A stretch of 64,000 nucleotides of DNA, from contig NZ_FZOB01000001.1 in assembly GCF_900188395.1 (NCBI RefSeq), positions 198,101 through 262,100 of the forward strand, read 5' to 3'. The translations under genes were made by a program, and so were the position numbers. The notes beneath the pieces were generated by a model that was not told where the DNA came from, searched no databases, and saw only the letters and a program-made list of their open reading frames with translations. This document shows, in pieces, positions 55,325-64,000 of this stretch. This DNA comes from Desulfurobacterium atlanticum (lineage in GTDB: Bacteria > Aquificota > Aquificia > Desulfurobacteriales > Desulfurobacteriaceae). Each line of letters opens with the position of its first letter. The stretch's first letter is position 1.

Positions 55325-55348
55325 GCCGGGATTGTTTACCCCGGCTTT
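55325..55348. terminator. Bidirectional terminator between C_GCAxxG_C_C gene and sdhE
   Basis: GCCGGGattgtttaCCCCGGCttt; lies between convergent stops. Confidence 0.55.
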
Positions 55349-56207
55349 AAACTATGTAAAGTGCTGGAACGACATTTTTATCAAGTCCAATTTCTTCAGG
55401 TGAAAGTCCCATTGCAAGTCCTATAAGTTGTTGAATATGGAGAACCGGCATGATAAACTTTTCTCCGATAGTTTTCAAAGCCTTCCTTTGATTTGCGTCC
55501 ATATTAAGATGGCACAATGGGCATGGTGTTACTACACAGTCAGCATCCATATCATGGGCTTCCTTTAGATTTTGCCCTGTTAGAGTCATTGCTAAACGTG
55601 AGGCTGAAAAGGAAGCGTGAAATCCGCAGCAGAGGATTCTCCTATTTCCGGATACCGGGATTCCTCCAAGTAGTTTTATCAGTTTTTCAAGAGATGATGG
55701 ATTTTCAGAATCATCATATCCTGTGATATGCTTTGGTCTTATTGAATGGCATCCGTAATATGGGTAAACTTTTATATTGGTAAGGGGTTTTTTGATTTTC
55801 TTTTTTAAGGTATCTGTAAAATAGTCAAGTATTACATGGTGGAGGAGGTAAACGTTTACTTTTCCCTCATATCTTAACCCTGCTTCAGAAAGAATTTCAT
55901 TGTATTCCTCTTTCAGAGTTTCTCTTTCTTCAAGTCTTCTCTGCGCTTTCTTAAGCTCAAGATAACAGGTGCTGCAGATGGTTATTATGTCTCTTCCTTC
56001 TGTTTCAGCTATTGCAAGGTTTCTTACGTTTATGCCGAGGGCAACAGAGGGCTTTACCTCTTCAATATTCCCTGCACCGCAGCAGCTGAAAGATAGCGGT
56101 TCTGTGTAGTCTATTTCAAGCTTGTTCATTACAGCTTTTGCACTGATGTAAGATTCTATAGATGCACCTTTTGGGGCACATCCGGGATAGAATGCAAATT
56201 TTTTCAC
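55347..56207 (-). CDS. sdhE: Type-E succinate dehydrogenase/fumarate reductase subunit with two CCG (HdrB-like) Cys-rich domains
   Basis: 286 aa; two CCG motifs (CCGAG...; CCGF...) as in HdrB/SdhE. Confidence 0.75.
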   Translation of the reverse strand: MKKFAFYPGCAPKGASIESYISAKAVMNKLEIDYTEPLSFSCCGAGNIEEVKPSVALGINVRNLAIAETEGRDIITICSTCYLELKKAQRRLEERETLKEEYNEILSEAGLRYEGKVNVYLLHHVILDYFTDTLKKKIKKPLTNIKVYPYYGCHSIRPKHITGYDDSENPSSLEKLIKLLGGIPVSGNRRILCCGFHASFSASRLAMTLTGQNLKEAHDMDADCVVTPCPLCHLNMDANQRKALKTIGEKFIMPVLHIQQLIGLAMGLSPEEIGLDKNVVPALYIV

Positions 56208-57172
56208 AGTTCCACCTCCTCAGAAAGGGCAACAACTTTCTTGAAACTTTCAAGGTCTTCTATCGGTTTTACAAGGGGAGGAGGCATTTTCCCTCTTGCA
56301 AGAAAAGAAAGGGCGACGGGCATCTCCTCAATTACACCTTTTATTCCTTTAGACATAAGAGGAATTATCGCTTCATTTAAGATACCTTTTGAAATTACAC
56401 TTTTATAAAAAGCTATTGCGTGTCTTGCTCCCGGATTTAGAGTTAGTCCTTTTTTAATGGACATAGCTCTTAAGTGGATAACAGCTTCAGATGAGGAAAT
56501 CTGCTTCGGGCATACATCAGAGCATCTTTCACATCTTATACACTGCCACAGGTCAAAAGCGTAGGCGATTTTACTTCTTTCCTCTTTTAATCCGTCTCTC
56601 GGGTCTTTTGCAAAACGGTATATTCTTGCATGCTGGAAAGGTCCAGCATATTCTTTAAAATTCATAACAGCAGGGCACATTGAGAAGCAACTTCCACATA
56701 AGATACAGTCAGTATATTTATCAAATTTTTCAACTTCTTCTGGATAGACTATAGATTCTTCTTCACAGTTTTGTGGAACAATCTCGGGGTCGGGAATTAA
56801 ATACGGTTTTATCCTTTCAAATTTCTCTTGAGCATCTTTAAAGTCAACTGCAAGATCTCTTATTACTGTTGCATTTTGAAGAGGTTCAAGGGTTAAGGTA
56901 TCTGTGTTGAAGCGGTCAAGTTCCATAAAAACTTGCGTTTTGCAGGCAAGTTTAGGATGGCCGTTAACCTTTAGAGCACATGAACCGCAGATTGCACTTC
57001 TGCAAAATCCTTTAAATGTTAAAGTTGGATCTATGTTGTCTTTTATGTATTGAAGAGCCTCAAGGATTGTCATTCCTTTATGGACTGTTATTTTAAACGC
57101 TTCAAAATGGGGAAAATCATCATATTCCGGATTAAATCTACTTATCCTGAAGGTTACTTTTCTTTTTTCCAT
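56204..57172 (-). CDS. sdhB: Succinate dehydrogenase/fumarate reductase iron-sulfur subunit
   Basis: 322 aa; 2Fe-2S (CRSAICGSC...C), 4Fe-4S and 3Fe-4S Cys clusters (CILCGSCFSMCP; CIRCERCSDVCP). Confidence 0.9.
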   Translation of the reverse strand: MEKRKVTFRISRFNPEYDDFPHFEAFKITVHKGMTILEALQYIKDNIDPTLTFKGFCRSAICGSCALKVNGHPKLACKTQVFMELDRFNTDTLTLEPLQNATVIRDLAVDFKDAQEKFERIKPYLIPDPEIVPQNCEEESIVYPEEVEKFDKYTDCILCGSCFSMCPAVMNFKEYAGPFQHARIYRFAKDPRDGLKEERSKIAYAFDLWQCIRCERCSDVCPKQISSSEAVIHLRAMSIKKGLTLNPGARHAIAFYKSVISKGILNEAIIPLMSKGIKGVIEEMPVALSFLARGKMPPPLVKPIEDLESFKKVVALSEEVEL

Positions 57173-58872
57173 TAGTATTTCCTCTCTTCAGGTTTGTATC
57201 TTGTTATAGTGACAGGTTTATAAGAGATCTTATAATCACCATTTTCAAAGGTAACTACTGAGTGTTTCAAAAACTCCTTATCGTTTCTTTCTGGGTAATC
57301 TGTTCTAAAGTGAGCACCTCTACTTTCTTTTCTTTCAAGTGCTGTAATAACTGTAACTTCAGCGAGTTCAACCATGTTTAAAAACTCAAGAGTTTGTTGA
57401 AGATTTGTGTTAAATGTGTATGAGAGGTCTTCAACCTTTATATGGTTTGCCCGTTCTTTTATCTCCTTTACCTTTTCAAGAGCTTTTTTAAGTTTTACTT
57501 CATCTCTAAATATGCCCGCTCCTTCTGTGAGGGTGTCACTTAATTCATTTCTTAGTGTGGCAAGTTTTTCTTTTCCATCCTTTTCAAATAGAGATTCTAT
57601 TTTATTTCTTTCGTCTTTCAACTTTTCTACCGGAAATTCAGGTAGTTCTGACGATAAAGCGTATTCAGCTGCCATCTCTCCGGCTATTTTTCCAAACACA
57701 ACTATATCAAGTAGGGAGTTACCGCCAAGTCTGTTTGCTCCGTGCACCGATACACATGCACACTCACCGGCTGCAAATAGCCCGTCTATAATGGTTGCAG
57801 TATTTATATCTGTATCAATTCCTCCCATACAGTAGTGGGCTGTGGGTCTGATAGGAATGGGTTCTTCTATAGGATCAATTCCCTCAAAGTCTATTGCAAG
57901 TTCTCTGATTTGAGGTAATTTTTCAAGTATTTTTCCTTTTCCAAGATGTCTTAAATCAAGGAAAACAAATTTATTTCCTTCATCATCTTCAAATCCTCTT
58001 CCCTGTGCTATCTCTGTTTCTATCGCTCTTGAAACCATATCCCTTGGAGCAAGTTCCATCTTTTCAGGGGCGTATCTGGACATAAATCTTTCACCTTCTT
58101 TGTTTATGAGATATCCGCCTTCTCCCCGTGCTCCTTCAGTAACTAAAATTCCAGTTCTCCTTAAACCTGTAGGATGAAACTGCACAAACTCCATATCTTT
58201 TAAAGGAACTCCTGTTTTTAAAGCAAGAGCAGTTCCATCACCTGTGCAGCCAAGAGCGTTTGATGTTCTTTTCCAGTATATTCTTGCATGTCCGCCGGTT
58301 GCAAGAATTACAGATTTTGCTCTTATAACCTCTATTTTTCCAGATTTCATATCTATTGCTATAAGACCGCATATTTTCTGGCCATCATGAACAAGGGATG
58401 TAACAAACCATTCATTAAAAAATTTGACATTTCTTCTTATGCACTGTTCAAAAAGAGTTTGTAGCATTACATGTCCTGTTTTGTCTGCTGCGTAACAGGT
58501 TCTGGGGAAGGAAGCTCCCCCGAAAGGTCTCTGGGCTATTTTACCGTTTTCAAGTCTTGAAAAAGGTAATCCCATGTGTTCCATTTCTATTATTATTTTT
58601 GGAGCTATCTGGCACATAAGTTCTGCTGCATCCTGGTCGGCAAGGAAATCACTGCCTTTTATCGTATCGTAGGTATGTTTTTCAGGGGAATCGTTGGCCA
58701 CATTTGAAAGAGCTGCGTTTACTCCTCCCTGAGCAGCGCCTGTATGTGAACGGGTTGGATAAACTTTAGAGATTACTCCGACTTTTATATTCGGATTTTT
58801 TCTTATTGCTGAGAGAGCTGCATATAGTCCTGCTCCGCCCGCTCCAACTATGGCGACATCAAGCTTTAACAT
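57172..58872 (-). CDS. sdhA: Succinate dehydrogenase/fumarate reductase flavoprotein subunit
   Basis: 566 aa; FAD-binding [11 protein letters not shown], covalent-FAD His region (SHTGAAQGG), catalytic HPTG / RxxxG motifs. Confidence 0.9.
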
Positions 58873-58999
58873 TTTTCCTCCTGCTGAATATAAGTGAATT
58901 CATCTGCCCTAATTCTACCAAAAATTAAGACTTTATAACTTGTTTTTAAGTTAATTAGAAATATATTTTTAAATGAAACTCTTGTTAGGAGGTACTAAC

Positions 59000-59293
59000 A
59001 TGAAGATGCCGGTAAGAGTGTTTAAGTGTATGGATTGTGGCGAAGAGTTTAAGGTTCCCTTCGGTAAACCAAAATGGATGCTTGAATGTCCTGAGTGCGG
59101 AAGTGAACGTATAGTTAGAATCGGCACAGAAGCCGGGGATTTTGAAAGCCGGGAAAAAGATGGAAAAGAAAGTGAGCCGGTATTTCTGTGCTGTGGTAAT
59201 ATGCACAAGTTTGGCTGGGGTTGGCGTCCTCGCTTCGGGAAAGGTTTTGGCTGGCGTAGAAATGGAAGAGGAAGAGGCTGGTGTAGAGGGTAG
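59000..59293 (+). CDS. FmdB-like zinc-ribbon protein with Trp/Arg/Gly-rich C-terminal tail
   Basis: Start at ATG 59000 after AGGAGG; CMDCGEEF...ECPECGS zinc ribbon; tail GWGWRPRFGKGFGWRRNGRGRGWCRG. Confidence 0.55.
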   Translation: MKMPVRVFKCMDCGEEFKVPFGKPKWMLECPECGSERIVRIGTEAGDFESREKDGKESEPVFLCCGNMHKFGWGWRPRFGKGFGWRRNGRGRGWCRG

Positions 59294-59307
59294 ATATAGT
59301 TTTGAAA

Positions 59308-59341
59308 GTTAGAAATGGGGTATAATATCCCCGTTTCTAAC
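59308..59341 (+). terminator. Strong hairpin after zinc-ribbon gene (probable terminator)
   Basis: GTTAGAAAtGGGGtataataTCCCCgTTTCTAAC followed by tttatt. Confidence 0.5.
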
Positions 59342-59357
59342 TTTATTAAAATGAGGT

Positions 59358-61523
59358 GTGTTGGGTTTGGAGTCCGATTTTTCTGGAAATAAAGTTAAAA
59401 GTTTTTTGCTATCTTTTCTTAAAAGTTATTCTGGGATTTTTTTCATTTCAGAGCCGCTTTTTGGTTTTTTTCTATTCCTTATAACTTTACTTAATCCAAA
59501 TATGGCATTATCAGGTTTCCTGTGTGTTATTTCGGCTTATTCTTTTGCAAGATTATTGGGTCTTAAAGACACTTTTCTCGGACTTGATTTTTATATTTAC
59601 AATCCATTACTTGTAGGGCTTGCAATAGGCTACCTTTTCAAACTAAACCTTCTTACTTTTATTTTTATTTTCAGTCTCGGAATATTAACATTTCTCATGA
59701 CTTACACTTTATCTTCTATATTTTCTTACTATTTGAAGTTGCCAGTGCTTAGTATTCCCTTTGTAATTGGAAGCTTTATTGTTTATCTTGCATCAATTAG
59801 ATATTCTAATCTTTTTGTAATATCTTTATATCCACATTATCCTGTTTTTCAGCTACATCTTCCTGATTTTTTAAAAGGCTTCTTTTCTTCACTTGGTGCA
59901 ATTCTTTTTTCTCCATCTGTCTTTGCAGGGTTGTTCATATTTTTAGCCCTTTTTCTTTATTCAAGAATTCTTACTTTTCTTGCTGTTATTGGCTATTTTT
60001 CAGCAATATTTATCACAGGTTTGATGACAGGGTCGTTCGTGAATACCTTTAATGATATTTCCGCATTCAACTATATATTGATAGCTATGGCTGTTGGAGG
60101 TGTTTTCCTTATACCTTCTCCTAAAAGTTATCTTTTTGCCATACTTTCTTCCATTATAGCTGTTCCGATTGTGGAATCAACGAAAGCTTTCTGGCAACAG
60201 TTTGGAATTCCTGTATTTGCTTTACCGTTTAATACAGTTACTTTACTTATAGTATATACGCTCGGTCTTATTAGCTGGGAATATACGACAAAGCTTTATA
60301 GAGGAACTCCAGAAAAAACACTTGATTATTATCTTACTTACTTAAAAAGATTTCCCTTTTCCACAAGAACATTGTCTCTTCCTTTTTCTGGTGAATGGAC
60401 GGTATGGCAGTCTTTTGATGGAGAATGGACGCACAGGGGACCCTGGAAATATGCAATTGATTTTGTTATTTCTGATGATAAAGGAAGTACTTTTAAAGGT
60501 GACGGTAATTCTTTAACAGATTATTATGCTTTCGGAAAACCAGTTCTTTCTCCTGTAAGAGGAAGGGTTATTAAAGCTCTGGATAGAATTAAGGATAATC
60601 CTCCCGGTCAGGCTGATAAAGAAAACAATTTCGGAAATTATGTCTTGATATATGATGAGAGGGGATTCTACGTTCTTATTGCTCATCTTAAGGAAAATTC
60701 TTTAAAGGTAAAGTCAGGAGATTGGGTGGAGAAGGGTTCTATTATAGGGCTTTGCGGAAATTCAGGTTATTCTCCTCAACCTCACATTCATATTCATGTG
60801 CAACTATTATCTGATATCGGTTCTCCAACTGTGCCGTTTAGTTTTGCACCTTTTATACGAAATGAAAGAGAATTTGTTGATAATGGAGTGCCATTAAGGG
60901 ACGAAAGAGTAAAACCTGTATTTGCAGATAAAGCTTTGAAGAAAAAATTAAATCTTTTAATAGACATGGTTATGAAATATAAAGTTGTTCAAAATGATGA
61001 AGAAATGGGTGATGTAGAATTTGCTGTTAAGATGGCTCCTGATGGGACTTTTTATCTTACAGATGGAAGTGCGAAGCTTTATTTTGCTGTATTTAATGAG
61101 ACTTTCTATTTTCTTAATTTTGAAGGGAATAAAGATTCTTATTTAAGGTATCTTTTTATTTCAGGTAGTAAAATACCCCTGTTTCTTGAAAAGGCTTTAT
61201 TCTGGAAAGATTATTTACCGTTAGACCTTTTAGAAAATGGCATGATGACAGCTATATTGAGATTTTTAGCTTCCTTTAAACACGATTTTTATGAGGTTAA
61301 AGCGATTTATGAATGTTCTGGAAATAATTCTATTTCTGGAAAAGTGGAGTATCCTAATGGTTTTCTGTCAACTTTTATTAAAGTTGATTCTAACTTTGGA
61401 TTTAAAGAGATTAAAATTGAGTCTAACAAAAAAAGATTAATACTTAGGAGAGTAGAGGATGAAAAAGTTTTTATTAATGGCAACGGCAATGGCAGTGCTT
61501 TTTTCACAAAAAGCATCGGCTAA
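59358..61523 (+). CDS. Fusion protein: urea-transporter (UT)-family-like membrane channel domain + M23 (LytM) metallopeptidase domain + C-terminal domain of unknown function
   Basis: 721 aa; N-terminal ~320 aa with ~10 TM and UT-like motifs (GLDFYIYNPLLVGLAIG; ALPFNTVTLL); M23 motifs HxxxD-like (HRGPWKYAIDF), GNSGYSPQPHIHIHVQ (HxH); ~230-aa C-terminal beta-rich domain. Confidence 0.65.
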   Translation: MLGLESDFSGNKVKSFLLSFLKSYSGIFFISEPLFGFFLFLITLLNPNMALSGFLCVISAYSFARLLGLKDTFLGLDFYIYNPLLVGLAIGYLFKLNLLTFIFIFSLGILTFLMTYTLSSIFSYYLKLPVLSIPFVIGSFIVYLASIRYSNLFVISLYPHYPVFQLHLPDFLKGFFSSLGAILFSPSVFAGLFIFLALFLYSRILTFLAVIGYFSAIFITGLMTGSFVNTFNDISAFNYILIAMAVGGVFLIPSPKSYLFAILSSIIAVPIVESTKAFWQQFGIPVFALPFNTVTLLIVYTLGLISWEYTTKLYRGTPEKTLDYYLTYLKRFPFSTRTLSLPFSGEWTVWQSFDGEWTHRGPWKYAIDFVISDDKGSTFKGDGNSLTDYYAFGKPVLSPVRGRVIKALDRIKDNPPGQADKENNFGNYVLIYDERGFYVLIAHLKENSLKVKSGDWVEKGSIIGLCGNSGYSPQPHIHIHVQLLSDIGSPTVPFSFAPFIRNEREFVDNGVPLRDERVKPVFADKALKKKLNLLIDMVMKYKVVQNDEEMGDVEFAVKMAPDGTFYLTDGSAKLYFAVFNETFYFLNFEGNKDSYLRYLFISGSKIPLFLEKALFWKDYLPLDLLENGMMTAILRFLASFKHDFYEVKAIYECSGNNSISGKVEYPNGFLSTFIKVDSNFGFKEIKIESNKKRLILRRVEDEKVFINGNGNGSAFFTKSIG

Positions 61524-62340
61524 AACCTATTCAGCTTTTTATGGAACTTATATTGATTATAGCAGTGGCAATAAAACCTCTGGATACTCTGGAACGTTTT
61601 ATTTAAATACAGGAGATCTTTATCAATCAACATCCTTTGGAATATCTGCAACGAGAGTGGAAGAGAAAACAGAAGAAACTGTTTCTTTTCAAGGAAAACA
61701 AAGAACAGAGATCGTGACAGATTATATAGACCAGCTTGATTTTACTCTTCTTTACACAAATACAGATAAAATTCTAAAAAATCATATTTTTAGTTTCGGG
61801 TTCCATTACATATTAACAGATGACAAATCAACAAATAACGGTTCTATTTTCTACTTTGACGGAACATACTTTAAACCTTACAACTGGAATTCTGGGTTAG
61901 AGTTTGCAGTTTCGTTTTATCCTTCCACTAAGGTTTTTCAATTTGTTCCTCATCTTGGAAAGTATTTTTATACAAAAAATTTCACCTATTATACCTGGGT
62001 AAAAGGATACTATATAAAGGTTGGAGATACGGCAGATTTTGCTTTTTCCAAAACCAATTACTTTTCAGGGGAATTTGGAGTTCACTTTTATAAAGGTAAT
62101 TTTGATGCCGGTGTTTTTCTTTGGGGAGGGGAGCAGGTTTTTGCTGTGAAAAATTCAGGATTTGTTGTTTATAACTTAGGAGATGTTTACAAGGGAGGAA
62201 TAGTTTTTGATGGTGGATATAAGATTGATAAAAATTATAGAGTCGGATTTACTGCATCTTTAAATAGATTTGAGTATCCTGATACTGGAGAAAATGCTGT
62301 TCAAACTTCTGTAACAGGGTATGTAGGCTATACCTGGTAA
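61459..62340 (+). CDS. Putative outer-membrane beta-barrel protein
   Basis: 293 aa; signal peptide (MKKFLLMATAMAVLFSQKASA), alternating hydrophobic beta-strand pattern rich in Y/G/T, C-terminal aromatic ...GYVGYTW. Start overlaps previous ORF by 65 nt; true start may be downstream. Confidence 0.5.
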   Translation: MKKFLLMATAMAVLFSQKASAKTYSAFYGTYIDYSSGNKTSGYSGTFYLNTGDLYQSTSFGISATRVEEKTEETVSFQGKQRTEIVTDYIDQLDFTLLYTNTDKILKNHIFSFGFHYILTDDKSTNNGSIFYFDGTYFKPYNWNSGLEFAVSFYPSTKVFQFVPHLGKYFYTKNFTYYTWVKGYYIKVGDTADFAFSKTNYFSGEFGVHFYKGNFDAGVFLWGGEQVFAVKNSGFVVYNLGDVYKGGIVFDGGYKIDKNYRVGFTASLNRFEYPDTGENAVQTSVTGYVGYTW

Positions 62341-62345
62341 AGGAG

Positions 62346-63284
62346 GTGTTTTTGAAATACATATTTGGTCCTGTTTATTCAAGAAGGCTTGGCCTTTCTC
62401 TTGGAGTTGACCTTGTTCCCTATAAAGTTTGTAGTATGGATTGTGTTTACTGTGAAGTGGGAAGAACAACTGTTAAAACTCTTGAAAGAAAAGAGTATGT
62501 GCCTGTAAAGGAGGTTATAAAAGAGCTTGGGGATTTTTTGTCTGCTTCTCCTCCGGTTGATTTTGTAACCTTCAGTGGTTACGGAGAACCTACTTTAAAT
62601 TCTAAAATAGGAAAAGTAGTTAAATTTTTGAAAGGAGAAATCCCCGATATTCCTATTGCTTTAATAACGAACAGTTCATTACTGTGGCAGAAAGATGTTT
62701 TAAATGATATAAGGGAGATGGACCTTTTTCTGCCTTCCTTTGATGCAGCTTCAGATACTGTTTTGAAAAAAATTAATAGACCTGTATCTGCAATTTCGGT
62801 AGAGCTTTTAAAAAAGGGGCTTTTAAATCTTAAAAAGGAAACAGAAGGGAAAATCTGGCTTGAAACATTATTTGTTGAAGGTTTAAACAATAATAAAGAT
62901 GAAATTCTAAAGATAGGTGAGTTTGTGCACTATTTGGAGCCAGATAGATGGCAGATAAACACAGTTGATAGGCCTCCAGCTTATAACAGCAAACCTCTTT
63001 CTTACGAAGAGCTTGAGAAGATAAAAGAGATGGTTAAATATCCTGCTACGGATATTATTGTAAGAAAATCTACTGAAAATCGGAGCAGTTTTACTTCTGA
63101 TTTTAAAAGAGAGATTCTTGATCTTGTAAACCGACGTCCCTGTCCGATAAAAGAGATTTCAGATGCTCTTGGGGTATTGCAGGAAGATGTGGAAAAGGCG
63201 GTTGAAGAGTTGTTAAGAGAAGGGAGAGTGTTTAAAGTAAAATTTGGAAACGTTTTTTATCTTAAAGGAAAAGAGAAAAAATGA
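62346..63284 (+). CDS. Radical SAM protein with C-terminal winged-helix-like domain
   Basis: 312 aa; CSMDCVYC (Cx3Cx2C), GYGEPTLN glycine-rich SAM motif; C-terminal LVNRRPCPIKEISDALGVLQEDVEKAVEELLREGRV wHTH-like. Confidence 0.8.
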   Translation: MFLKYIFGPVYSRRLGLSLGVDLVPYKVCSMDCVYCEVGRTTVKTLERKEYVPVKEVIKELGDFLSASPPVDFVTFSGYGEPTLNSKIGKVVKFLKGEIPDIPIALITNSSLLWQKDVLNDIREMDLFLPSFDAASDTVLKKINRPVSAISVELLKKGLLNLKKETEGKIWLETLFVEGLNNNKDEILKIGEFVHYLEPDRWQINTVDRPPAYNSKPLSYEELEKIKEMVKYPATDIIVRKSTENRSSFTSDFKREILDLVNRRPCPIKEISDALGVLQEDVEKAVEELLREGRVFKVKFGNVFYLKGKEKK

Positions 63285-64000
63285 GATTTTTTCAGGTTTT
63301 TATTCTGATTTTTGTTTTTTCCTTGAAGGCGCAAGCGCAAGTTATAAACATAAGCTCTGATGTATATTTTCCTGAATATCTTAAAAAAGAGATAATAGCT
63401 CAATCAAAAAAAGTTTGTTCTGCTTCAAATTGCACACATGTAGTGGTAGAACTTTTGCGATTTTTAGGTTATGAAGCTGAGATAGATAACAATAATATAA
63501 GAATTGCCAGAAATTTAAAGATAACCTCTGTTTCTGTCAGGGGTCTTCCTGAATTTATGAAAAAGGATGAAAATATTGTCAAAAATTTCCTTTTAAACCA
63601 GATATATTCCTCTGAGCTTATAGAAAATGCAAGGCTTCTTCTTCTTTTTAAATTGAGAAGTGCAGGGTTTAAAGATGTAAAGATTAATGTAAAAACGGAA
63701 GAAACATTTAGAGGATATAGTGTTATTTTTAATATAGATAAGGGCCTTCCTCACGTAATAACAAAGATTTTGGTGGAGTGTGAAGTTCCTGACTTAAGAG
63801 CCATTGTTGAAAGAATTTTTTCCAAAGAAGTTGGGAAAAGATTTGACAGAGAACAGATTTTTGAAGTTGTAAAAGATATTGAAAAGAAGTTTTTAGAGCT
63901 TGGTTATTTTAATGTTGAAATTTCTTTTTCCTGGAAGGTCCTGAAGAAAAAGGAGAACAGAAAAGAAACAGTACTTATTATAAAGGTTGTTCCAGGTAAA
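63281..64000 (+). CDS. POTRA-containing outer-membrane protein (BamA/TamA-like), N-terminal fragment running off window
   Basis: Start ATG overlaps radical SAM stop (ATGA); signal peptide MRFFQVFILIFVFSLKAQA, then ~75-aa repeats resembling POTRA domains; no stop before nt 64000. Confidence 0.45.
   Translation, partial: MRFFQVFILIFVFSLKAQAQVINISSDVYFPEYLKKEIIAQSKKVCSASNCTHVVVELLRFLGYEAEIDNNNIRIARNLKITSVSVRGLPEFMKKDENIVKNFLLNQIYSSELIENARLLLLFKLRSAGFKDVKINVKTEETFRGYSVIFNIDKGLPHVITKILVECEVPDLRAIVERIFSKEVGKRFDREQIFEVVKDIEKKFLELGYFNVEISFSWKVLKKKENRKETVLIIKVVPGK

Follow-up and report, generated by a model that had tools for sequence, protein, structure and literature searches.

This report concerns a three-domain membrane protein encoded in a 64,000-nucleotide stretch of the Desulfurobacterium atlanticum genome (hereafter the window; RefSeq assembly GCF_900188395.1, contig NZ_FZOB01000001.1, positions 198,101 to 262,100, forward strand). 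The gene (59358..61523, + strand, in window coordinates) fuses a urea transporter (UT)-like channel to an M23 peptidase and a beta-barrel. Its open reading frame (ORF) is the one given in the original prediction, a note made from the sequence alone, and yields 721 amino acids (aa) when read from GTG 59358. The product is 100% identical to a D. atlanticum protein named "Urea transporter" by NCBI (718 aa), whose start was placed three codons downstream, probably at TTG 59367. The gene is an ordinary orthologue in a widespread inner-membrane protein family of uncharacterised function, and its product forms the hub, at the membrane, of a conserved cassette of six genes that recurs in more than 15 phyla. 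The fusion itself was already known; what looks new is the predicted cytoplasmic peptidase together with the conserved six-gene cassette.

Domains of the fusion protein

An AlphaFold2 model was built from 49 homologues (mean predicted local distance difference test [pLDDT] score, 89.8; predicted template modelling [pTM] score, 0.86) and divides the protein into three confidently predicted domains: a UT-fold channel, an M23 zinc peptidase, and an open beta-barrel with a lipovitellin/LolA-like fold. The UT and M23 assignments had already been made in the original prediction, and both were borne out by Pfam scans and fold superpositions. Residue conservation was counted throughout on 80 sequences drawn from many phyla.

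The UT-fold membrane domain (residues 16 to 305; 59403..60272, + strand), delimited by Pfam, Foldseek, and residue statistics, comprises two inverted repeats of five transmembrane helices plus a tilted half-helix in the AlphaFold2 model. Its match to UT (PF03253; TC 1.A.28) covers residues 19 to 300 (E value, 1.6e-59; 201.9 bits against a cutoff of 25; Pfam-A) and spans profile positions 3 to 289 of 292, which is nearly full length. The modelled domain shares the fold of the UT/SLC14 channels, with Foldseek template modelling scores (TM-scores) of 0.80 to 0.83 against Desulfovibrio vulgaris dvUT (PDB 3K3F) and 0.68 to 0.76 against UT-A and UT-B (bovine/human), although it is only 20 to 23% identical to these channels in sequence. 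The YN..LVG, LP....PFN, and FN..L....GG.F signatures are all kept, and the motifs GLDFYIYNPLLVGLAIG and LPFNTVTLL that had been singled out as UT hallmarks are present, at the invariant UT signature positions N82, L85, P290, F291, and N292. Scaffold residues that are invariant or nearly so across phyla are Y81, N82, L85, P134, F135, F184, F237, N238, L241, F287, P290, F291, and N292.

Published filter residues (PMC4357013) were mapped onto the fusion protein through a UT-A2 alignment. The Sm leucines of the urea filter are kept (L85 and L241), whereas the Sm threonine pair is replaced by S132 (Ser in 74/80 sequences) and A288 (Ala in 39 and Thr in 41). The So Gln/Glu position is occupied by A181, Ala being found there in 65/80, and the Si Gln position by G26, where the family has 45 Glu, 18 Gly, and 10 Ala. 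Only the leucines therefore remain of the set seen in functional urea channels (Leu and Thr pairs at Sm, Gln or Glu at So and Si), and the NCBIfam urea-transporter equivalog Yut (TIGR03441) scored 100.2 bits, below its cutoff of 274.6. The protein is thus a UT-family member by sequence and fold, yet with a filter unlike that of a proven urea channel; judged from residue conservation, its pore would combine the conserved scaffold with a filter less polar than that for urea. Such a filter, on a conserved scaffold hard-wired to an enzyme, suggests a different permeant. The domain had also been proposed to be a co-opted membrane anchor; since the pore lining is conserved, its UT signature residues not varying between phyla, and rigid docking of the domains is predicted, it is probably more than a passive anchor.

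A basic linker with a conserved helix (residues 306 to 340; 60273..60377, + strand; P318, E319, L322, D323, and R331 invariant) adds no transmembrane segment and leads into the M23/LytM-type zinc peptidase domain (residues 341 to 492; 60378..60833, + strand), delimited by Pfam and by conservation in the 80 sequences. Residues 393 to 482 match Peptidase_M23 (PF01551; E value, 2.6e-13; 50.4 bits against a cutoff of 28.7; Pfam-A), and this part of the model superposes on the catalytic domains of lysostaphin, EnpA, and LytM (Foldseek TM-score, 0.65 to 0.73). It is the most conserved domain of the fusion protein, with H359, D368, H443, C466, H476, and H478 invariant in 80/80 sequences. A profile alignment (hhalign) pairs H443 with the catalytic His of lysostaphin and H476/H478 with its HLH motif.

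The zinc ligands had been described as intact HxxxD and HxH motifs. The second stands (H476-I-H478, accompanied by the second catalytic His, H443); the first does not, as no H-x3-D occurs anywhere in the fusion protein, and the HxxxD region precedes profile position 13, where the Pfam match begins. Its likely substitute, to judge from conservation, is the invariant H359-x8-D368 pair. This arrangement recalls the long His-Asp spacing of M23A enzymes. D388, which a global hhalign alignment to lysostaphin offered as the canonical Asp, was rejected; because it is conserved in just 66/80 sequences, against 80/80 for D368, the latter is the better ligand candidate. The domain thus appears catalytically intact but atypical (H-x8-D, H, HxH).

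The nearest NCBIfam and PDB matches of this domain are peptidoglycan hydrolases (Csd1/2, ShyA, MepM, and lysostaphin). Compared with M23/LytM peptidases at large (lysostaphin, LytM, MepM/ShyA, and Csd1-3; LasA and beta-lytic protease in M23A), it shares the beta-sheet core, retains HxH and the catalytic His, and has a "GxSGYSxxPHxH" block resembling that of lysostaphin. It differs in carrying H359-x8-D368 instead of HxxxD, an inserted loop (residues 369 to 392), and the invariant Cys466, in having no peptidoglycan-binding or coiled-coil accessory domain, and in its predicted cytoplasmic location.

A further beta-rich domain had been noted at the C terminus; it is real, somewhat shorter than thought (about 210 rather than about 230 aa; residues 493 to 700; 60834..61457, + strand), and folds confidently when modelled alone (pLDDT, 91.5). 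No Pfam family was matched by these residues. A profile of the domain, run against 1.84 billion representative proteins, gave 491 matches; as the complete ones are about 700 aa long with the domain at about residues 485 to 690, it appears to be specific to the UT-M23 fusion family. The predicted open beta-barrel fold is that of LolA, LolB, and LppX and of the N-terminal open barrels of lipovitellin, ApoB, and MTP, but there is no sequence relationship to these (2 to 14% identity, no Pfam match), and the fusion's barrel is predicted to be cytoplasmic whereas they are periplasmic or secreted. Beyond it lie a disordered C-terminal tail (pLDDT, <50) and the stop codon (61458..61523, + strand).

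When one genome per species was scanned, relatives turned up in 358 species from more than 15 phyla, with orthologues of about 700 aa. Hosts include Aquificota, Thermodesulfobacteriota, Desulfobacterota, Desulfurellales, Thermotogota, Deferribacteres, Calditrichota, Ignavibacteria, Rhodothermales, Gemmatimonadota, Planctomycetota, Verrucomicrobiota, Nitrospinota, and others. Of the relatives in databases, the 120 best matches (47 to 100% identity; 655 to 731 aa) carry both PF03253 and PF01551 without exception, under the names "urea transporter," "peptidase M23," "peptidoglycan DD-metalloendopeptidase family protein," and "urea transporter/murein DD-endopeptidase MepM." The combination had been thought not to be a described architecture; with 358 species, annotation in domain databases, and a listing in a 2026 survey, that view falls. 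The survey (Cagliani et al., Biol Direct 2026; PMC12998343), which used the UT profile to search UniProt, counts M23 among the commonest bacterial UT-fused modules and presents a model of one UT+M23 example (representative, A0A399T3G1). The D. atlanticum protein is a member of this catalogued UT + Peptidase_M23 architecture (Pfam/UniProt), with M23 C-terminal to UT; the survey only lists the combination and takes up neither its topology nor the third domain, the unusual zinc motif, the changed filter, or the conserved gene cassette. Searches of the literature on the fusion and the cassette yielded this survey alone and no paper on function, topology, or gene context, and a graspetide census makes no mention of either.

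Membrane orientation and gene cassette

We strongly infer that both termini of the UT domain are cytoplasmic and that the M23 domain and barrel sit at the cytoplasmic mouth of the pore, from where the peptidoglycan sacculus would be out of reach. Three independent lines of evidence lead to this placement: UT homology, the positive-inside rule, and variants fused to tetratricopeptide repeats (TPR). Mammalian UTs have 10 transmembrane helices, an extracellular N-glycosylated loop between the halves, and both termini in the cytoplasm (PMC9097623). The central loop of the fusion protein (residues 155 to 175) aligns with that glycosylated loop, and the predicted N-in/C-in topology is shared. In the model, no membrane-spanning helix lies between the last UT helix (residues 289 to 304) and M23, and there is no signal peptide; the fusion protein differs from UT/SLC14 channels in bearing about 400 additional residues, predicted to be cytoplasmic, and in its lack of a urea-metabolism context. 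Over 49 sequences, Lys plus Arg (K+R) counts are 8.0 in predicted inner loops against 2.9 in outer loops, and the linker after the last transmembrane helix (about 37 residues) holds 5.9 on average.

The third line comes from full-length variants of 1073 to 1085 aa (P0154, P0158, and P0200), in which the barrel is followed by an Arg-rich stretch, exactly one hydrophobic helix, and two tandem TPR modules. K+R counts around the extra hydrophobic segment are 6, 3, and 7 before it and 3, 1, and 3 after it. The fused modules are 37 to 43% identical to the separate, signal-peptide-bearing TPR protein of the cassette (E values, 3e-35 to 3e-41). As the TPR part is exported when separate and gains a membrane crossing when fused, barrel and TPR would lie on opposite sides of the membrane. 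These variants (L008 132-3353) are high-GC. An extracytoplasmic location is typical of M23 enzymes, though not formally defining, and the three lines predict the cytoplasm instead; the periplasmic, peptidoglycan-directed peptidase of the original prediction runs against this evidence, and a role as a periplasmic cell-wall hydrolase is unlikely.

Some database entries were set aside. Soluble M23-barrel forms lacking UT (P0267 and P0258), considered as support for a cytoplasmic location, are contig-edge fragments with the frame open to the contig end and a match to the family linker, and P0122, which joins an electron-transfer flavoprotein beta subunit to a piece of the barrel, was disregarded as a probable assembly artefact of chimeric type. 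A further variant, P0160 (1029 aa), continues past the UT-M23-barrel region with several additional hydrophobic segments, W..DG.GW TPR-like repeats, and another UT-like tail (…LPCN…); its architecture may be genuine or the product of a chimeric assembly.

The cassette runs, in order, from a PqqD-like peptide-binding chaperone (about 80 aa) through an ATP-grasp carboxylate-amine ligase (about 342 aa), a pyridoxal phosphate (PLP)-dependent decarboxylase of the Orn/diaminopimelate (DAP)/Arg family (about 450 aa), and the fusion protein to p300 (about 300 aa) and a TPR protein (about 204 aa). The same co-directional, tightly packed arrangement occurs in Thermodesulfatator, Persephonella, Hippea, Desulfurobacterium thermolithotrophum, and Thermodesulfobacterium. 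It was surveyed at 80 further loci, each partner being counted only where the flank was long enough. Upstream, PqqD was present in 52/59, ATP-grasp in 53/59, and the decarboxylase in 54/59; downstream, p300 was found in 48/60 and TPR in 50/60, all at fixed offsets and on the same strand. The conserved partners include cytoplasmic amide-bond enzymes rather than cell-wall genes. The cassette contains no urease or urea-metabolism gene, and neither mur and mra nor other cell-wall genes show conservation nearby.

The nearest solved relative of the decarboxylase is FslC, an N-citrylornithine decarboxylase (E value, 9e-60), ahead of DAP decarboxylases; BtrK was also matched. Both FslC and BtrK act on amino acids that are already amide- or carrier-linked; the step before BtrK, on a small carrier protein, is the work of the ATP-grasp ligase BtrJ. 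Set beside the FslA/FslC (rhizoferrin) and BtrJ/BtrK (butirosin side chain) pairs, the cassette decarboxylase is most similar to FslC, but the ligase comes from a different ATP-grasp subfamily (carbamoyl phosphate synthetase-like/PF15632) and the small partner is PqqD-like, not an acyl carrier protein; those pathways, moreover, have no M23, UT, TPR, or outer-membrane component. The PqqD-like protein (PF05402) finds its best matches among the recognition element (RRE) chaperones of lasso peptides, and its gene lies upstream of ATP-grasp at the 52/59 loci, so that an RRE/PqqD-like protein stands beside a modifying enzyme, as in pathways for ribosomally synthesised and post-translationally modified peptides (RiPPs). 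An ATP-grasp enzyme paired with an RRE-like chaperone is known RiPP logic (PMC8939145).

Directly upstream of PqqD in Desulfurobacterium spp. (L006 440-3355 and L090 5849-7734) is a gene for a DUF4405 membrane protein, preceded in L006 by genes for a MamS/MamX-like protein and a sigma-54 two-component pair and in L090 by one for a DUF2202 protein. Synteny on this side is lineage specific (8 to 14 loci).

The window copy of p300 (61459..62340, + strand; 293 aa) is 38% identical to its T. indicus counterpart, is rich in Tyr, Gly, Thr, and Phe, and has a signal peptide and a C-terminal aromatic beta-signal (…GYVGYTW). In about 60 homologues the signal peptide and this composition recur, along with an aromatic ending after an alternating pattern (…GYRF, …GFNF, and …GYTW), the features expected of outer-membrane barrels. 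The p300 profile had no match in PDB and nothing convincing in Pfam, with faint matches only (OMP_b-brl in 3/23 members, OmpG, and Porin_2). On these sequence features, p300 is probably an outer-membrane beta-barrel of an undescribed family. We also strongly infer that the TPR protein, which has weak NCBIfam matches to BcsC and PgaA, is periplasmic. As in the PgaA, BcsC, and AlgK/AlgE export modules, a periplasmic TPR gene thus stands beside an outer-membrane-barrel-like gene, downstream of an inner-membrane component; unlike in those modules, there is no glycosyltransferase or synthase and the inner-membrane part has a UT fold with a narrow pore, and p300 matches none of their barrel families. 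At another locus (L009 1156-1605), an incomplete fusion gene is followed downstream by an ORF with a signal peptide, a TPR-like N terminus, and a Gly/Ser/Tyr-rich beta-like sequence, which runs into the contig end; it may be a TPR plus barrel in a single chain, as in PgaA or BcsC.

In D. atlanticum, the window holds only two cassette genes, fusion and p300; TPR, PqqD, ATP-grasp, and decarboxylase genes are absent from its 64 kb even at an E value of 1. The ATP-grasp orthologue (72% identity) lies on another contig, flanked by PqqD and the decarboxylase, and the DUF4405 gene precedes these enzyme genes as in D. thermolithotrophum. With the enzyme genes on another contig and fusion and p300 alone in the window, the cassette is split here, its 3' half having been relocated beside a fumarate-reductase-like operon. 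The fusion gene and p300 overlap by 65 nt (61459-61523), against 1 to 26 nt in other genomes, and the overlap codes for the disordered 21-residue tail of the fusion protein; this suggests a recent 3' extension of the fusion gene following the split.

Candidate functions

We lean, if gently, towards a reading in which a cytoplasmic M23-barrel unit, mounted on a UT-like pore, serves a six-gene cassette that processes an amide-linked conjugate. The ATP-grasp enzyme and PLP decarboxylase would build and decarboxylate an amide-linked amino-acid/amine conjugate in the cytoplasm, with the PqqD-like protein possibly presenting the intermediate. The M23 domain would then hydrolyse an amide bond of the conjugate at the membrane surface, perhaps with a hydrophobic or lipid moiety held by the barrel, the UT-like pore would pass a small neutral substrate or product, and TPR and p300 would form the periplasmic and outer-membrane leg. 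The specifics of this scheme (an amide conjugate, hydrolysis by M23, passage through the pore, and an outer leg of TPR and p300) are tentative, and we would sooner expect them to fail than to hold. Stated more broadly, the protein would contain the first cytoplasmic, catalytically active M23 domain, docked rigidly at a re-purposed UT pore within an unrecognised envelope-spanning pathway, present in more than 15 phyla, most of them diderm, for making, trimming, and moving a small metabolite of amide/amine or lipid-linked type; this is a serious possibility, if one that falls somewhat short of an even chance.

Such a finding would matter in several ways. M23/LytM domains are the usual markers of extracytoplasmic cell-wall hydrolysis, and a conserved, intact cytoplasmic member would widen the biology of the family. 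If M23 is cytoplasmic, the annotations "peptidoglycan DD-metalloendopeptidase" and "urea transporter" are misleading in hundreds of genomes. The UT fold is, to our knowledge, known solely as a urea/amide channel. Found from Aquificota to Planctomycetota and Gemmatimonadota, the cassette is a defined, testable unit in which to seek a new envelope pathway.

Several points weigh against processing of a conjugate by a cytoplasmic peptidase. All M23 enzymes that we know of are extracytoplasmic or virion borne, so a cytoplasmic one is an exceptional claim, here resting on prediction. Neither a peptide nor a polymer could pass through so narrow a pore as that of UT, and a link from M23 products to the pore is conjectural. 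The extracytoplasmic p300 and TPR would also fit a periplasmic enzyme. Some loci (L032, L034, L035, L038, L049, L077, and L080) have the fusion gene with none of the five partners in the available flanks; they are mostly from Aquificota metagenome-assembled genomes, Persephonella, and Nitrospinia, and may represent either additional split cassettes or an "orphan" subgroup of paralogues. Upstream of PqqD, a search for a conserved precursor-peptide ORF on the plus strand found none; several loci have no intergenic space. Unbiased clustering of all ORFs of at least 25 aa from about 85 loci gave no further widely conserved gene or precursor, with the limit that BLAST may miss short peptides. An Rfam scan of nine cassette loci and of positions 57000-64000 of the window returned no riboswitch or other family. 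With no precursor peptide, extra conserved gene, or riboswitch found, no element points to the metabolite.

Of the alternatives, a genuine urea or small-amide channel with the M23-barrel mainly as a regulatory or gating appendage, like the ankyrin or EF-hand modules on other UTs, survives best and is still unlikely. The invariant pore scaffold, the closeness of the fold to dvUT, and the rigid docking (pTM, 0.86) would suit it, and regulatory roles for UT-fused modules are proposed in the Cagliani et al. survey (PMC12998343). The polar urea-coordinating residues are replaced, however, TIGR03441 falls below its cutoff, and the cassette is devoid of urea-metabolism genes. In addition, the invariance of all five catalytic/ligand residues and the position of M23 as the most conserved domain argue for catalysis over binding alone; the degenerate LytM domains with a regulatory role, as in EnvC and NlpD, have lost such residues.

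Editing of lipid II at the cytoplasmic face, with the barrel holding the polyprenyl tail, M23 cutting the peptide stem, the ATP-grasp and DAP-decarboxylase-like enzymes rebuilding or modifying it, and TPR and p300 reading the modified wall on the outer-membrane side, is improbable. M23, DAP-type decarboxylases, and ATP-grasp enzymes (Ddl-like) all have peptidoglycan-related paralogues, the barrel fold is of the lipid-carrier type, and nearly all listed host lineages belong to phyla that we take to be diderm; there is also a precedent in VanX, a cytoplasmic LAS-fold peptidase working beside the ATP-grasp ligase VanA. Against this stand the lack of any conserved cell-wall gene nearby, the generic similarity of the barrel (8 to 10% identity), and a decarboxylase nearer FslC than bacterial LysA, and the UT pore would be left without a role.

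Still less is to be said for the arrangement that was originally proposed, in which the UT-like domain, N-out/C-out, would be the anchor of an M23 endopeptidase in the periplasm, where peptidoglycan cross-links are remodelled, perhaps when a small molecule passes the channel; we regard it as quite improbable. It would agree with the hydrolases found as closest M23 matches and with the envelope proteins p300 and TPR as partners, and the characterised M23 enzymes known to us all act on peptidoglycan outside the cytoplasm. It would, however, have to overcome the cytoplasmic termini of UT homologues, the K+R bias and basic linker, the absence of both a signal peptide and an extra transmembrane segment before M23, and the additional helix that the TPR-fused variants need to reach a periplasmic TPR; three of the five conserved partners, moreover, are cytoplasmic enzymes.

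A RiPP-like or carrier-peptide pathway, in which PqqD presents a peptide, ATP-grasp and decarboxylase modify it, and the membrane-bound M23 matures or releases it in step with export, is very improbable: the RRE-like matches of PqqD favour it and peptidase-containing ABC exporters are a precedent for a cytoplasmic peptidase fused to a membrane conduit, but no small ORF is conserved in or beside the cassette (about 80 loci), the pore is far too narrow for a peptide, an energising module is absent, and a uniform six-gene order across more than 15 phyla resembles a housekeeping pathway, not a variable biosynthetic cluster.

Neighbouring genes in the window

Between the fusion gene and the gene before it lies a perfect hairpin with 13-bp arms (59308..59341, + strand; GTTAGAAATGGGG / CCCCGTTTCTAAC), which has TATAAT in the loop and is followed by UUUAUU (TTTATT). 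It is stable (dG, -25.1 kcal/mol; z, -5.4) and probably serves as a terminator marking off the fusion/p300 transcription unit; a consensus terminator scan did not flag it. The gene before it (58973-59293, + strand) encodes a small FmdB-type Zn-ribbon protein (CxxC…CxxC; TIGR02605; E value, 2e-5) with an unusual Gly/Trp/Arg-rich C-terminal tail (GWGWRPRFGKGFGWRRNGRGRGWCRG), and its true start is probably an ATG near 59001, after AGGAGG.

Further upstream is a three-gene fumarate reductase/succinate dehydrogenase-like operon (55347-58872, - strand), recognised from translations only. Its products are a flavoprotein (566 aa), an Fe-S subunit (322 aa), and a subunit of 286 aa with two CCG motifs (HdrB-like), and by sequence it would resemble a type-E succinate:quinone reductase or a thiol:fumarate reductase.

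Downstream, 6 nt past the p300 stop codon, begins a gene for a radical-SAM protein (62346-63284, + strand; 312 aa; PF04055; E value, 1e-16) with a weakly winged-helix-like C terminus. In other genomes the radical-SAM gene does not belong to the cassette, and a TPR gene stands in its place. Elsewhere, the uvrB gene that adjoins the cassette in Persephonella (L003 1-3261) carries, by Pfam annotation, an intein with a LAGLIDADG endonuclease.

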